Positions 13,906 to 60,686 of a DNA stretch of 64,000 nucleotides are shown piece by piece. The DNA is from Eledone cirrhosa (taxonomy: Eukaryota). The DNA is taken from positions 184,698,001 through 184,762,000 of the forward strand of contig OZ024743.1 in the NCBI GenBank assembly GCA_964016885.1, in the 5' to 3' direction. The position numbers were made by a program, and so were the translations under genes. Within the stretch, counting starts at the first letter, position 1. Each line of letters opens with the position of its first letter. Below the pieces are notes generated by a model, which was given only the letters and a program-made list of their open reading frames with translations, did no database searches and was not told the DNA's origin.

Positions 13906-14216
13906 TTGAATATTATACTCCAGAAAACTTGTCGAGTGCTCTGAATCAGTTATAATCATTTATATTTGTTGAATTACCAACAAATTGAATATCCCTTTTG
14001 CTTATATATTTATATATATTATCCTGAGTTGGTTTTCTCGTTGCTTTGGTCCTTGCGTCTGGCTCACCGGTCGCAATCTTCAATTTGTCAAGCTGTCTAA
14101 ACGTAATGTTATTACTCTAAGGTAAAAACTACCTTATTGAGTGCTTAGCTGTACATTCCGAATTGCATTCGTTAGCATGGTCGCAGCCAGAGCTTTGATT
14201 CTACTGAACTTCCATT

Positions 14217-14268
<52 letters not shown>

Positions 14269-14363
14269 CAGAAGGGAAATTCAATTTGCTGGTAATTCAA
14301 CAAATATAAATATTTATAACTTATTCAGAGCACTCGACAAGTTTTCCGGAGTATAATATTCAA
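13906..14363. repeat. Inverted repeat (~100-bp arms, 13906-14006 / 14262-14363)
   Basis: ttgaatattatactccagaaaacttgtcgagtgctctgaat... is mirrored by ...attcagagcactcgacaagttttccggagtataatattcaa. Confidence 0.88.
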
Positions 14364-14404
14364 TGATATTAAATAAATGGAAACTATATTTATAAGACCA
14401 TATT

Positions 14405-14465
14405 TATTCTATTATATATATTTCAAGGGTACCAACATTTTGGTACGCTATCATCAGATAAAATA
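14405..14465 (-). ncRNA. Type I hammerhead ribozyme motif (intact core)
   Basis: Reverse complement: tattttat-CTGATGA-tagc-gtacca-aaatgt-tggtac-cctt-GAAA-tatata-TA-atagaata. Confidence 0.72.
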
Positions 14466-14602
14466 CGAAGTGTGTTTTATAAATTTTGACATAACCAAGG
14501 AAAATATACCTAACGTTCAAGTTTTCCTATACTATCCAAGGAAAACTTGAACCGTTAGGTATATTTTCCTTGGTTATGTCAAAATTTATAAAACACACTT
14601 CG

Positions 14603-14662
14603 TATTTTATCTGATGATAGCGTACCAAATTTTGGTATCCTTCAAATATATATAATAGAATA
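14603..14662 (+). ncRNA. Hammerhead motif, mirror copy with GAAA changed to CAAA (predicted inactive)
   Basis: tattttat-CTGATGA-tagcgtaccaaattttggtatcctt-CAAA-tatata-TA-atagaata. Confidence 0.55.
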
Positions 14663-14690
14663 AATATAGTTTCCATTTATTTAATATCAT

Positions 14691-14740
<50 letters not shown>

Positions 14741-42309: not shown

Positions 42310-43803
42310 ATCATCATCGTTTAACGTCCATGTTCCACGCTAGCATGGGTTTGGACGGGAATTTCCCCACTTGAGGCAAGATTAGTTGTCTTGCTCGTAT
42401 AGGACTGTCTGGCGGGTTTTCTACGGCTGGATGCCCTTCCTAACACCAACCACATTTACAGTGTGGACTGGGAGGTTTTTACCGTGTTACCGACACGGCC
42501 ACATTACAGCGTGGACTGTGTTTTTTCGTCGTGACATCTACACGACCTCATTTATTTAGGATTGGATGTTGTGGTACCAACATAACTTTACATCGAAAGG
42601 GGTGGTGTGGATAAGGTGGGGGTAGTGGGATGGGGGTGTATTTTGTTAGAGGTGCCTACTGACTGTAGGTTTCGCTTTGTACTTAGGCAAGGCGGGTCTT
42701 CTGTATAACTGTGTAGCGCCAAAGATCTCGGTCCAGTGACATTGTCTTGGAGAGGTGTAAGTGTGTGAGGTCGGAATTTATCAAGTCGCCCCAGGTTTTT
42801 CTGGGTCTGCCTACTCCGTGGCTACTGTCTATTTTTATTGCCCTGCACTTTTTTATACAGCTGTCGTCTTTCATGCAAATCATGTGACCATACCAACGTA
42901 GTCTTCTCTCGAGTAAACAACATCTGATCCCTCTTATTCCTAATTTCTCCCTTAGTTCGTTTATGCTTTGCCGTTCACGTATATTACTATTGCACATCCA
43001 ATGGAGCATGCAAGCTTCGTTCCTCTCCAGTCTGCGTATATCCTCTGCACACAATGCCCAAGTCTCACTGCTATGTAACATTGCTGTTCGTATGCAGGCA
43101 TCATACAGCCTGCCTTTCATTTTTAGAGAGAACCCTTTAGCGACCAATAGTGGTATAAGCTCTCTGAACTTTTTCCACCCTGTTCTGACTCTAGCTACTG
43201 TACTTTCAGAGCACCCTCCACCACTGCTGATTTTGTCACCCAGGTAATGGAAGCTCTCCACTATTTCTATAGAACCATCTGTGCAATGGAATGAGCTAGT
43301 ATTCTGTGGGCACTTGCTGCTACTTATTGCACCAGAGCACCGGCCACATATAAAATCTATATTCTTAGTTAGCTTACCTGTGATCCCACTACATCCTTTA
43401 TGCACCCATATTTGCATTTGGGACATAAAATGGAGTTTCTGCCTACTCCTTTCCTACACACTGAGCACGGCCATTTCCCAGATGGGACCAGTGCCCTATT
43501 TTCCTTCCTACAAACTAGAACTTTAGTCTTAGACAGGTTAATTTTTAGGCCTTTTGATTCTAGGCCATGCTTCTATGTTTGGAATTTCTACTCTAGCTCG
43601 GCCATTGATTCAGCTACGAGCGTTAGATCATCTGCATATAGGAGTTCCCATGGGCAGCCGGTCTTGAACTCCTCTGTTATAGCCTGAAGGGCAATAATAA
43701 ATAGTAGGGGGCTAAGAACGGAGCCCTGATGAACACCAACTTTTACGCTAAACTCTTCACTATATTCGTTGTTAATTCTAACCTTGCTGACTGTTTCTTT
43801 ATA
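42310..43803 (-). mobile_element. RTE LINE, 5'-truncated and frameshifted
   Basis: GVHQGSVLSP, LYADDL, PHD-like finger, RLRWYGH, 3' UTR and (GAT)n tail. Confidence 0.93.
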
Positions 43804-44029
43804 CATATATATATATATAGTAAGTGAACAACACAAAATATAACTACTCCATTACCAAAGGTTTCTGGATCCCAGACAATATTTTGTGTTGTTCACTTTC
43901 TAATTAAAAAGCTCTGTTCTATACATAGAACACTTTTTTCCTTTGCTTTTCCTTCGGAATTACCTAACATGTATATATATATAGTAATAATAAATGTGAA
44001 GACTAAAATCTGAAGAGGGCTCAATAAAG

Positions 44030-44067
<38 letters not shown>

Positions 44068-44174
44068 TGTAGAGCAAAACGCCAGCACCAACAGTTTTGC
44101 AAGAGATGTCAACATGAATGGACCTGTTATTTTTATCTAAAGACATTTTTTCCAATTCCAACCCGCCCGTCCCC

Positions 44175-44215
<41 letters not shown>

Positions 44216-45254
44216 ATATATATACGTGTGTGTGTGTGTGTGTGTGCTCCCGGATTGTACTTCTCCCTCCTACCTTCCTACTTCCTCAATTCACCTTTTC
44301 CTAGTAAGTAGAAGGGAAAACAGAGCCCTGATCCCCTCAGGGAATGGCCTTGCTCAGTGTGTAGGAAATTTGTAGGTAGAAATTCCTTCCTCTATGCCAA
44401 ATACAAACTATGAGCACACAAGAGAGTGCTTCAGCCTGTGTTCATGGGAAGGCGAGTATTCTGTATTACTGCATAACACCAGAGATCTTGGTCCTGTGAG
44501 AGGTGCACATGTGCAAGGTCTAACTACATCACCTCATCCTAAGTCTTCCTACTCCATAGCTTCCATCAACTTTGAGCACTCTGCACCTTTTTATACAGCT
44601 GTCATCCTTCATACTCATCACATGTCCAAACCAAGGCAATCTCCTCTCCTGCACACTGAATCTGATTCCTCTTATGCCTAGTTTCTCTCTCAGTTCGTTT
44701 CTGCTTTGCCATTCACGTATATTACTATTACACATCCATCGGAGCAAGCAAGCTTCATTTCTTTTCAATCTCTGCAAGTCCTCTGCACACAGTGTCCAGG
44801 TCTTACTACCATTAAACATTGTTGCTCGTATACATGCATTATACAATCTGCCTGAACTTCTCACTCTGGCTATTGTACTTTCAGAACACCCACCTCTGCT
44901 GCTAATTTGGTCACCCAGGCAGCAGAAGCTATCTATTGCTTTTACCAAACTTTCCCATAATTTGATAGTACTTGTTTCCTGTGGTCATTTGCTGCTTACT
45001 GCTCTGATGCAACAACTATATGTAAAACCTACGTTCTTAGCTAAACTACCTGAGATCCCACTCTCTTGTGTGCTCATAGTTTACATTTGGCATAGAGGAA
45101 GGAATTTCTACCTACAAATTTCCTACACACTGAGCAAGGCCATTCCTTGAGGGGGATCAGGGCTCTGTTTTCCCTTCTACTTACTAGGAAAAGGTGAATT
45201 GAGGAAGTAGGAAGGTAGGAGGGAGAAGTACAATCCGGGAACACACACACACAC

Positions 45255-45303
<49 letters not shown>

Positions 45304-45649
45304 GGGGACGGGCGGGTTGGAATTGGAAAAAATGTCTTCAGATAAAAATAACAGGTCCATTCATGTTGACATCTCTTGCAAAACTGTTGGTGCTGGCGTT
45401 TTGCTCTACAGGTTTATATATATATATATATATATATATAATCTTTATTGAGCCCTCTTCAGATTTTAGTCTTCACATTTATTATTACTATATATATATA
45501 CATGTTAGGTAATTCCGAAGGAAAAGCAAAGGAAAAAAGTGTTCTATGTATAGAACAGAGCTTTTTAATTAGAAAGTGAACAACACAAAATATTGTCTGG
45601 AATCCAGAAACCTTTGGTAATGGAGTAGTTATATTTTGTGTTGTTCACT

Positions 45650-45665
<16 letters not shown>
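43803..45665. repeat. Large inverted repeat (~610-620-bp arms, 43803-44429 / 45059-45665)
   Basis: agtaagtgaacaacacaaaat...gagcacacaagagagtg is mirrored by cactctcttgtgtgctc...attttgtgttgttcacttact. Confidence 0.92.
44430..45190 (-). mobile_element. RTE LINE 3' fragment (spacer and part of right arm of the inverted repeat)
   Basis: IDSFCCLGDQISSRGGCSES...RRLPWFGHVM; 3' end resembles 26400-26442. Confidence 0.88.
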
Positions 45666-45679
<14 letters not shown>

Positions 45680-54026: not shown

Positions 54027-54033
<7 letters not shown>

Positions 54034-54925
54034 AATTAGTATATCTACCAACATATATATACAGATGCATACCTATGCTAGCAAATATATAGGTTTTGTC
54101 TTAGTAACTTTGTGGTTCAATGCAAGGGGATGCAGAACAATTATATGAATGAGGTAAAATAAGAAAATTATAAAAATTAACTTACTAAAATTTCACTCCA
54201 ACTAATTAGTTTCTGAAAGGGAATAAACATGGTTTACAAATGATTAACTCGATGTCACGTGATTGATTCTTTTGAATTTGCCACCGACCAAGTAGGCAGT
54301 GATTTTTTCAATGTCTTGGAATTTAGTCCACGCTTGCTTTTTTCCATCCACTGAATTATTTTTGTATAAGTTCCCTGTGTCCACGCACCGCCAGGTATCT
54401 TAGCTGAGAACAGACTTCCTGATGACGAAATGGCTTCTACATGCTTTCCATTTGGAAACCATGTTTATTCCCTTTCAGAAACTAATTAGTTGGAGTGAAA
54501 TTTTAGTAAGTAAGTTAATTTTTATAATTTTCTTATTTTACGTCATTCATATAATTGTTCTGCATCCCCTTACATTGAACCACAAAATTACTAAGACAAA
54601 ACCTATATATTTGCTAGCATAGGTATGCATCTGTGTATATATGTTGGTAGATATACTAATTCTTTATAATTATCTCCAAATTATTTTGTTGAGCAAAACT
54701 TTTCTAAAACTGCTACTATAGTTCATAGTAATGGCTTGGCTACTGTCTTTTTAACACCCACTCCTCACTGATTAACCTCGATGTCACGTGATTGATTCTT
54801 TTGGATTTGCCACCGACCAAGTAGGCAGTGATTTTTTCAATGTCTTGGAATTTAGTCCATGCTTTAGTTGGAGTGAAATTTTAGTAAGTTAATTTTTATA
54901 ATTTTCTTTTTTTACGTCATTCATA
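54027..54925. repeat. Composite inverted plus direct repeat unit with hammerhead-like core
   Basis: 54027-54242 is inverted at 54449-54668. 54242-54330 is directly repeated at 54770-54860, and 54487-54550 at 54865-54925. CTGATGA..GAAA at 54419-54458. Confidence 0.85.
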
Positions 54926-58003: not shown

Positions 58004-60679
58004 GATATCACAGAAAAAAAGAGAATCAGTGTTGCGACGAATGGAATTTATTGGACATATTACAATCGTTTCTGTCGACCAGCTCGAGGCATGATCGATG
58101 TGATGATCGAACCTGACTCTGAAAATCTCAAGGTCCTCAGATACGTCTTGATTCTATGAAGCAGATTTTCCTATGTCCTTTTACATCGATATACTTCGCC
58201 TGTCGGCTTAGATCCTGTTGTTGTCATTCTATGAGTGGTCAAGAATTGTACACGTCATCAGTATTTCTAGCCACTCATGGTTGTCGACTATTTGGTTCTT
58301 TTCATTCTCCACCTGTCAATCAAATTTGTTTCTTAGGTCGGAATTACTACTGTAGTAGGTAAGGGGTTGTATGCTTGAACTGCTGGCGGCACTTTGACGT
58401 CTTCACTGTCTTTAGGCGCCCTCCTCTACACCGATCACGTACACACCCGCAACTGTATTGTATGTGACGATCACTGTAAATAATGCTTGGAGGGAATTTT
58501 TAAATCAAATTAGAAAAATATTAGAAAAATACTTAGCATAACATTTCAAGAACACAGCCTCAGAATACCTTAAAACATACATATTTCAAAAAGAAAAAAA
58601 CAAAAACTCTGTACAAAGAACGTTTTTAAATGAATGCTTGGAACAACCTTTCAAAAAAAGTTATTTCGAAGGCATTTTTGATAAATATACTCATATCTAC
58701 ACTCACACACTGTACTTAAGGAAGTGTGTACTGTTGAGACGCTGCACATATATACACAGATGAAAAAAAGAAAGATCTACACATAGGCATTCATACCCTC
58801 ACACAGACATATGCATACATGTGTGCATGCATATCTGCGTGGACGCGCACACATACTTGATGAATGCCCTCCCATCCGTACACACACGCGCAGCTGTGCA
58901 CACAGTATTATATGGGACAACGTTCTTGAGGCTTGGACCCAACCCGATCATGTGGCGATATAAGCCCGAAAGTGCATGCACAATATGCATAAATGTTATA
59001 GCCGCATAGTATCCTGCCCTAATCACATATAACTTGGGTGGCACATATATATATATATATATATATAAAAGTGCCTGTATGTAAAATAAAATAATATAAT
59101 ATAATATAAAATAAAATGCTAGAAAAAGGAATGTATACATGACGAGGATGCAGAGGGGTCCAGACATTATTGGGGTGTGCGTAAAGTTGCATAAAATACT
59201 TGAGGGCTGTGGTGCATATGGTTATATAATATACATGGGGACTGACTGGTGATCTAAGGTACTGGGTAAGAGCCTGTACATGATGCAGGTCTCATGGTTG
59301 GTGGACACAAGGGGACCTTGCGTGCGTACACAAACAAGTTATATATGTTGTGGATGTGTATAACATCCATTTCATAATAGTATATATGAGATGTACATGT
59401 AGTGGCTGTATACATAGAATACATAGGGTGTGTATATAACCATATGCACCACAGCCCTCAAGTATTTTATGCAACTTTACGCACACCCCAATAATGTCCG
59501 GACCCCCTCTGCATCCTTGTCATGTATACATTCCTTTTTCCACCATTTTATATTTTATTTTATGTACATACAGGCAATTTTTTTATATATATGTGCCACC
59601 CAAATTATATGTGATTAGTGCAGGGATACTATGTAGCTATAACATTTATGCATATTGTGCATGCACTTTCGGGCTTATATCGCCACATGATCGGGTTGGG
59701 TCCAAGCCTCAAGAACGTTGTCCCATATAATACTATGTGTACCATGTGCACAGTTGCACGTGTGTGTATGGATGGGAAGGCATTCATCATGTATGCACTC
59801 TCGATATGAGCGAGTGCAGGTATAAGTATGTATGTGTGTCCATGCAGATATGCATGCGCACGTGTATTCACATATCTGGGTGGATGAAATTGTATGAACA
59901 TGTCTGTGTGAGGGTATGAATGCCTATGTGTAGATCTTTCTTTTTTTCATCTGTGTATATATGTGCAGCGTCTCAACAGTACACACTTCCTTAAGTACAG
60001 TGTGTGAGTGTAGATATGAGTATATTTATCAAAAATGCCTTCGAAATAACTTTTTTTGAAAGGTTGTTCCAAGCATTCATTTAAAAACGTTCTTTGTACA
60101 GAGTTTTTTTGTTTTTTTCTTTTTGAAATATGTATGTTTTAAGGTATTCTAAGGCTGTGTTCTTGAAATGTTATGCTAAGTATTTTTCTAATTTGATTTA
60201 AAAATTCCCTCCAAGCATTATTTACAGTGATCGTCACATACAATACAGTTGCGGGTGTGTACGTGATCGGTGTAGAGGAGGGCGCCTAAAGACAGTGAAG
60301 ACGTCAAAGTGCCGCCAGCAGTTCAAGCATACAACCCCTTACCTACTACAGTAGTAATTCCGACCTAAGAAACAAATTTGATTGACAGGTGGAGAATGAA
60401 AAGAACCAAATAGTCGACAACCATGAGTGGCTAGAAATACTGATGACGTGTACAATTCTTGACCACTCATAGAATGACAACAACAGGATCTAAGCCGACA
60501 GGCGAAGTATATCGATGTAAAAGGACATAGGAAAATCTGCTTCATAGAATCAAGACGTATCTGAGGATCTTGCGATTTTCAGAGTCAGGTTCGATCATGC
60601 CTCGAGCTTGTCGCCAGAGAGATGATTCTAATATGTCCAATAAATTCCATTCGTCACAACACTGATTCTCTTTTTTTCT

Positions 60680-60686
<7 letters not shown>
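58004..60686. repeat. Very large inverted repeat (~1.2-kb arms, 58004-59227 / 59433-60686; ~200-bp spacer)
   Basis: Identical 68-aa ORF on opposite strands (58156+, 60339-). Ends atatcacagaaaaaaagagaatcagtg / cactgattctctttttttctgtgatat. Confidence 0.95.

Follow-up and report, generated by a model that had tools for sequence, protein, structure and literature searches.

Two 3' ends of an abundant repeat, head to head in a (TA)n tract of Eledone cirrhosa: a probable short Penelope-like insertion with hammerhead motifs

A 332-base palindrome at positions 14361-14692 of a stretch of Eledone cirrhosa DNA (64,000 nucleotides of contig OZ024743.1, hereafter the window) carries a hammerhead motif in each arm. 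This arrangement raises two questions: what kind of element leaves two ribozyme-like sequences head to head, and did selection act on the palindrome or on the RNA of its parent? The window is AT-rich, abounds in (TA)n tracts and LINE reverse transcriptase frames, and is animal-like. An earlier note on this DNA treated the palindrome (copy 2) as the second member of a ribozyme-palindrome family, the first being the palindrome at 11-379 (copy 1).

Comparison of copy 2 with its relatives in the window, with sequencing reads and with published systems leads to the following reading, which we hold with good though not full confidence. In copy 2, two 3' ends from a high-copy repeat are joined head to head inside a (TA)n tract, one arm bearing a tail and the other none; copy 2 is most likely a short insertion of a Penelope-like element (PLE), or of a non-autonomous derivative of one, made by target-primed reverse transcription.

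The palindrome, its tail and its target

The features of copy 2 and of its relatives are as follows.

1-379, no strand assigned: copy 1, a near-perfect palindrome (181/184 identical) with a tail start on the left and (TA)n on the right
10609-10770, minus: third, more divergent family member, with hammerhead C3 at 10710 and stem III AUGCGCAU (descriptor and sequence-only model)
10777-10848, plus: family 3' end fragment without a hammerhead core, head to head with the third member
13909-14002, plus: solo tail of the same family with TA-rich flanks, likely a separate insertion
14219-14266, plus: TGTG(TA)22 on the left flank, one of two copies of a 48-nt direct repeat that may be a target-site duplication
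14267-14360, minus: 3' tail of the element (94 nt), which only the left arm has, 92.6% identical to the solo tail 13909-14002
14361-14528, minus: left arm, the element's 3' end with its sense on the minus strand (arm alignment)
14405-14465, minus: type I hammerhead motif with C3 at 14457, G12 at 14424 and predicted cleavage after A17 at 14413 (AUA)
14529-14538, plus: asymmetric centre, 10 nt at the 5' end of the right arm, mostly family sequence (loose ends of 19 contigs, run X1)
14529-14692, plus: right arm, the element's 3' end with its sense on the plus strand, stopping at the family's near end point (alignment)
14603-14662, plus: hammerhead motif (C3 at 14611) that is predicted to be inactive owing to G12>C at 14643
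14691-14738, plus: the 48-nt direct repeat again, on the right flank; the element's end overlaps its first 2 nt

Alignment of the minus arm with the plus arm gave 150 identical bases among 153 aligned, with three internal gaps. Relative to the minus arm, the plus arm carries three substitutions (G12>C at 14643, C>T at 14638 and G>T at 14631), and the arms differ further by two 1-nt indels, one in the loop and one at 14552, and by a 14-nt deletion in the plus arm that lies downstream of stem I and is flanked by two ATAAATAT repeats. The part shared by the arms thus holds six differences, including this microhomology deletion, and the flanks are not mirrored. At its inner end, the plus arm has 10 additional bases (14529-14538) that are absent from the minus arm; the loose ends of 19 contigs of run X1 extend the inner end of the left arm with this very sequence. 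The palindrome with its motifs, the C at 14643 and the short deletion described in the earlier note are all present in the sequence, and the differences between the arms do speak against a simple read artefact, each arm having family sequence that is missing in the other. The limits 14361-14692 hold for the palindrome but not for the element, which runs on to the left into the 94-nt family tail.

The earlier note had proposed that arm-versus-arm divergence be compared with copy-versus-copy divergence. Arms within one copy are about 98% identical, whereas copies 1 and 2 share about 75-78% of their aligned bases and differ in their centres. The inner sequence of copy 2, reported as different, does differ; it is not unrelated, however, given this degree of identity and the inner motifs common to both copies. 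In all four arms of the two copies, the first base lies 71-83 nt upstream of C3.

The start of the tail is also found at the cut left edge of copy 1 (positions 1-10 of the window), and tail variants occur in contigs of two organisms (A and B). The right arm of copy 2 stops at 14692 and is tail-less. The solo tail at 13909-14002 begins almost exactly at the near end point of the family and faces the tail of copy 2, so that some 230 nt of other DNA are enclosed by a small inverted repeat.

Copy 2 sits in a (TA)n tract, each flank having (TA)22, and TA-rich loose ends were found in runs X1, X4 and X5. Among the 36 TA runs of at least 8 units in the window, only these two flanks have 22 units. The 48-nt direct repeat lies inside a microsatellite and was seen at one locus; we regard it as a candidate duplication only, because equal TA lengths have a chance of about 7% among the runs of at least 12 units in the window.

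The abundance of the family was assessed in four sequencing runs compared with 14267-14545 at 80% likeness, the right arm being visible by reverse mapping only; X1 may be the source sample. Matches were obtained for 5,604 contigs in X1, 373 in X4 and 8 in the second organism (B), and for 25,540 of the 12.47 million reads of run X10. The family is high-copy and is present also in the second organism; summed depth is not to be read as a copy number in any of the runs. In X1, the summed depth drops 4-fold from bin 14357-14366 to bin 14347-14356, and TA-rich loose ends occur at this step, in 36 and 27 contigs, with a further set near 14270. The family has two 3' end points in the reads, near 14357 and near 14270. 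X1 also contains two joints between opposite strands at different positions (14434/14468 and 14358/14499). The C at 14643 is in the window sequence and is not among the 40 read variants listed out of 106. Within the window, a sequence-only model found six family segments and nothing else below E 0.03, and exact-pattern scans of metagenome contigs for the family returned 0 matches.

Several other inverted structures were observed in the window. Large inverted duplications at 43800-45672, 54027-54668 and 58005-60686 (88-96% by blastn, one 418-nt stretch being 100% identical) surround unrelated sequence and are either real rearrangements or assembly artefacts. An older palindrome at 6906-7729, in which no hammerhead core was found, has arms that are 77% identical; it is TA-rich at its centre and contains a short inserted repeat. 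The fragment at 10777-10848 is interrupted by a different repeat (10849-11398), which has an inverted relative at 9539-10074 (82%) and whose start recalls what we take to be Helitron-type ends.

The hammerhead motif and its conservation

The minus arm contains the core of a type I hammerhead (CUGANGA, GAAA and UH in type I order), and the plus arm departs from it by G12>C. Stem I has 8 of 8 pairs in either arm of copy 2. Stem II of the minus arm comprises a basal U.U, two pairs, a C.C mismatch and seven further pairs (9 stacked pairs). Stem III is a self-complementary 8-nt palindrome (14421-14414), which reads AUAUAUAU in four of the five family arms and AUGCGCAU in the fifth, that of the third relative. 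Cleavage is predicted at a distance of 52 nt from the near end, or 146 nt if the tail is counted. For copy 1 the distance to the end is 51 nt, so that the outer terminus and the hammerhead position are shared with 11-379, as had been claimed, while stem II of copy 2 is indeed unlike that of copy 1. The description of the minus arm as intact applies to the core, but the base of stem II is U.U and not G-C.

G12 is the general base of the hammerhead, and the G12A change slows cleavage about 10^5-10^6-fold (PMC2553840). The plus-arm motif is predicted to be inactive by analogy with these G12A data, since G12C itself is not covered in the relevant part of that source.

In the isolated 71-mer, stem I has a predicted probability of only 0.12-0.14 and distal stem II one of about 0.99. 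When the motifs were cofolded as homodimers, only two of the five arms (the left arm of copy 2 and copy 3) gave the stem III duplex, the other three favouring a stem II duplex. A strict descriptor that calls for a stem I of at least 6 bp, a palindromic stem III of at least 6 nt and at least three of four basal stem II pairs matched two sites in the 64-kb window (279 on the plus strand and 10710 on the minus), with a mean of 0.0 in 200 dinucleotide shuffles. The motif of copy 2 itself has two of the four basal pairs and is missed by this descriptor because of the U.U and C.C in stem II. An Rfam search of the window gave no hammerhead match at the gathering score; at E<=10 it returned 26 matches, none to a hammerhead family, with hairpin-type miRNA and sRNA models, all below gathering.

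Comparison of the three subfamilies in the window revealed several compensated changes: (i) stem II pair 2 is A-U, G-C and A-U, (ii) pair 3 is G-C, G-C and A-U, (iii) pair 5 is G-C, A-U and G.U, and (iv) pair 6 is U-A, U-A and C-G. Position 4 of stem II is a C.Y mismatch in all three subfamilies, and the core is also kept. In stem III, the change from AUAUAUAU to AUGCGCAU alters two dimer pairs on both sides, and the two central bases remain complementary. Such a change fits dimer pairing, because central complementarity matters only between two molecules; it is a clean natural hint of stem III dimer pairing. Stem I changes are one-sided and keep the pairing, except for one U.U in the left arm of copy 1. 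The structure-level conservation suggested earlier is therefore borne out by compensation at stem II pairs 2, 3, 5 and 6 and at two stem III pairs, in a set of three lineages that is too small for a significance test.

The reads agree with conservation of the core, with no variant in CUGAUGA or GAAA among the 40 listed of 106 and strong variation at neighbouring positions. At position 10.1, A makes up 52% of the X1 depth, G 30% and U about 18%. The loose-end consensus of six X4 contigs, read by hand, has C-G at pair 6. A one-sided A>G at 14417, in the majority in the minus-strand reads of X10 and in X5, breaks the exact symmetry of stem III and keeps G.U pairing. Selection most likely acted on the RNA of the parent retroelement and not on copy 2 itself, and the conservation of the motif is best read as inherited from active parents.

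Relation to Penelope-like elements

Several features of copy 2 point to a PLE: an inverted, 5'-truncated copy placed head to head, a tail at one end, a (TA)n target, and a dimer-type hammerhead near the 3' end. We base membership on this anatomy because no coding partner was found. There is no reverse transcriptase or endonuclease frame linked to the family in the 64-kb window, nor any in or adjoining the element. A protein search with the frame of a neighbouring PLE yielded 76 relatives, mostly unnamed, and tblastn of these against the window gave matches at 1226-3057 only, with no link to the family of copy 2. A possible frame upstream of the copy 1 hammerhead, which by eye resembled the end of an endonuclease, was dropped as unconvincing. 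The hammerhead most likely sits in the terminal repeat of the element, as is normal for PLEs.

The closest published counterparts concern truncated PLEs. Cervera and De la Pena (2014) describe minimal hammerheads with a palindromic stem III that act as dimers, and ascribe opposite-strand pairs 100-700 bp apart to truncated PLEs (PMC4209133). The truncated Cercyon PLEs of Schistosoma mansoni resemble copy 2 in having two opposite-strand type I hammerheads, a long stem II and a palindromic stem III, and share with it a high sequence variety inside one genome (PMC4209133). Stem I has 7-8 bp here versus 4-5 in the hammerheads of that paper, and stem III is here an 8-nt palindrome. The same source calls the G10.1-C11.1 pair highly conserved in PLE hammerheads. 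This pair, with an extra base after A9, is absent here, the five arms having U.U, A-U or G.U instead; unlike the published motifs, they have no base bulged at 9/10.1 in the register that pairs best, and a register with a base bulged after A9 was rejected by hand, as it loses pairs in all three subfamilies. Lack of G10.1-C11.1 rules out the 2014 consensus. It does not exclude a PLE origin, because U.U and G.U occur in Hydra-clade PLE hammerheads.

Among the 26 Hydra-clade hammerheads listed by Craig et al. (2021, supplements S1 and S2), the basal pair of stem II is U.U in 14, as in copy 2, and G.U in 3. These PLEs have a (TA)n target in common with copy 2, and for one listed family a 5'-truncated inverted copy with a hammerhead on both strands is given, as found here. 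All 26 have AC...GU in stem III, versus AU...AU here, and stem II is longer here. We assigned no clade to the family, because the Hydra stem III differs and no protein is linked to the repeat. A basal U.U is also found in an axolotl motif, whose monomer cleaves to 22% in 1 h and whose dimer does so more efficiently (PMC7229834). Like the non-LTR retrozymes treated in that paper, the repeats of the family are short, non-coding and low in GC, and carry a type I hammerhead; retrozymes are head-to-tail tandems with circular RNA, whereas the copies here are head to head or single.

Insertions of endonuclease-bearing (EN+) PLEs show comparable structures. Craig et al. (2021) report that an inverted, 5'-truncated copy lies at the 5' end, that one end carries a tail of 30-40 bp and that microsatellites serve as targets (PMC8557442), and Arkhipova et al. 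(2013) describe head-to-head palindromic junctions, duplications of 8-10 bp in A. vaga and microhomology deletions (PMC3846280). Copy 2 shares with such insertions the head-to-head inversion, the one-sided tail, the AT-rich or microsatellite target and the microhomology-type deletion (PMC3846280, PMC8557442, PMC11167929). It differs from them by having no ORF between the inverted ends, a tail of 94 nt rather than 30-40, and a candidate duplication of 46-48 nt versus the 8-10 published for A. vaga (PMC3846280). General background is provided by a review (PMC6765202).

The anatomy is already known for PLEs. For this particular family, we found no description in the open-access literature searched. 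Lunse et al. (2016) reportedly treated dimers of PLE hammerheads and may already list similar variants.

Other PLE-related sequences were observed in the window. A separate, degraded PLE of a different family occupies 826-4819, with reverse transcriptase-like and GIY-YIG frames on the minus strand (1214-3057; GIY-YIG match PF01541, E 7.6e-5) and inverted terminal repeats at 826-1152 and 4505-4819 (92% over 327 nt). Each of its ends has a hammerhead with a G-C base, C3 lying at 1023 on the minus strand and at 4634 on the plus. At 556-760, between TA tracts, a minimal hammerhead (C3 at 637, plus strand) has an extra A after A9, G10.1-C11.1 and a palindromic ACGU stem III; the 59 nt upstream of it recur at 44125-44183 and 45295-45353. 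The motifs at 637, 1023 and 4634 were likewise missed by Rfam. The region 5880-6900 contains a GIY-YIG-like C-terminal frame, by eye akin to the Hydra-clade endonuclease ends of Craig et al. (2021), which has no Pfam match at E<=0.001; a long UTR comes after this frame, and near 6875 there is a decayed stretch that looks like a hammerhead.

Formation of the head-to-head pair and its meaning

The biochemistry of PLE insertion offers a possible route to copy 2. According to Frangieh et al. (2024), the PLE protein, a predicted dimer, cuts and extends both strands of AT-rich DNA and starts at two internal RNA sites that bound the tail; cleavage by the hammerhead is dispensable for insertion in vitro (PMC11167929). 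In copy 2, a PLE reverse transcriptase/GIY-YIG protein acting in trans, likely as a dimer, would have nicked both strands of the TA tract 46-48 nt apart. The 3'-OH of the top strand would prime cDNA from the far RNA start, giving the tailed arm that ends at 14267, and that of the bottom strand would prime cDNA from the near RNA start, giving the tail-less arm that ends at 14692. Synthesis of each cDNA would cease at a length of about 170-260 nt, and joining of the two growing ends would produce the palindrome, with the target duplicated as a direct repeat on either side. In the parent, stem III of the hammerhead would pair between two same-sense copies in a tandem transcript, and the hammerhead in copy 2 would be a passenger. 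The arms were likely primed from both target strands, double priming being what we infer from the arm-specific family sequence on each side; such sequence argues against a fold-back, biological or artefactual, and fits double priming. G12>C and the 14-nt deletion likely represent neutral decay after insertion. An open-access literature search for twin priming with inversion in Penelope elements listed no title on the PLE mechanism.

Several observations weigh against this explanation: the starts of the four arms, which are more uniform than random truncation suggests; the greater lengths of the tail (94 versus 30-40 nt) and of the duplication (46-48 versus 8-10 nt); the absence of G10.1-C11.1 in five arms; and the combination of no family-linked frame in the window with blank metagenome scans. 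The formation of PLE inverted repeats is itself called open by Craig et al. (2021; PMC8557442). There is an appreciable, if lesser, chance that the same PLE-type element formed the pair by self-priming, a fold-back in one reverse transcription after which an endonuclease trimmed one end and a small central deletion arose. For head-to-head palindromes of PLEs, self-priming is the mechanism preferred by Arkhipova et al. (PMC3846280), and Craig et al. ascribe the tail to EN-mediated resolution (PMC8557442). The almost perfect centre of copy 1 and the minority family bases common to both arms, such as U at 10.1 (about 18% of X1 depth), agree with it. In copy 2, however, some 8-10 inner bases are found in the right arm only and the tail in the left arm only, which requires two extra trimming steps, and the right arm terminates at the near end point shared by the family. 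Compatible with the chemistry of double priming, and tentatively entertained, is a dedicated non-autonomous unit of about 270 nt, SINE- or retrozyme-like and PLE-derived, with a fixed 5' end, the palindromes being near-full-length pairs. The 71-83 nt spacing in four of four arms suggests such a unit, as does the collapse of depth beyond about 14510, and animal retrozymes have been proposed as PLE derivatives (bioRxiv 10.64898/2026.07.22.740005). The drop in depth is confounded with the divergence between subfamilies, given a cut-off of 80%, joints lie elsewhere in the reads, one 853-nt X4 contig continues 775 nt past the hammerhead, and the six family segments in the window include no head-to-tail tandem.

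The remaining readings have low probability. The earlier note had considered that the palindrome arose repeatedly or that it is the propagated unit. Repeated origin agrees with our results; propagation under selection, for example as an ambisense RNA with a ribozyme per polarity, appears improbable, although two independent palindromes of similar size lie within 64 kb and copy 1 keeps both cores. Read-through RNA is predicted to form a hairpin of about 150 bp instead of a ribozyme (-222 to -228 kcal/mol, with a probability of 0.0 for stems I and II), and motifs on opposite strands allow no dimer within one transcript. The asymmetry of the arms, one core being broken in copy 2, the junctions elsewhere, the different centres and the contrast between arm identity (about 98%) and copy identity (about 75-78%) also count against a propagated palindrome. 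Slightly less probable still is a palindromic DNA-transposon derivative (MITE) with terminal inverted repeats, a TA target and an incidental or captured hammerhead. Near-perfect inverted arms, shortness and TA-rich flanks would suit it, but the left end runs into the 94-nt tail, so that the true ends are not inverted repeats as in a MITE; solo tails and single arms exist, and the hammerhead changes are compensated. Least probable is a chimera of assembly or amplification, a fold-back artefact. The window has several other large, near-perfect inverted repeats and no listed read contig spans the locus of copy 2; against this stand the six differences in the shared part, the microhomology deletion, the family sequence specific to each arm and the unmirrored flanks.

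The preferred reading of copy 2 remains a short PLE-type insertion, probably primed from both strands. As a discovery it is modest, the arrangement being in print for PLEs, and its value lies in the material: the palindromes are short, numerous and datable, and the asymmetry of their tails and centres can be used to tell double priming from self-priming. If transcribed, these palindromes are a predicted source of long hairpin RNA. A broader generalization, which we put forward as a doubtful possibility, is that an abundant non-autonomous PLE-derived family inserts routinely as double-primed head-to-head pairs with a duplication of about 46-48 nt and a 94-nt tail. If true, the family would define a hammerhead variant with an AU...AU 8-nt dimer palindrome, a non-G-C base of stem II and a conserved C.Y mismatch. 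Its thousands of copies would record a dimeric PLE enzyme, the cutting of both strands and two RNA start sites, and the origin of PLE inverted repeats could be settled by sequence alone.
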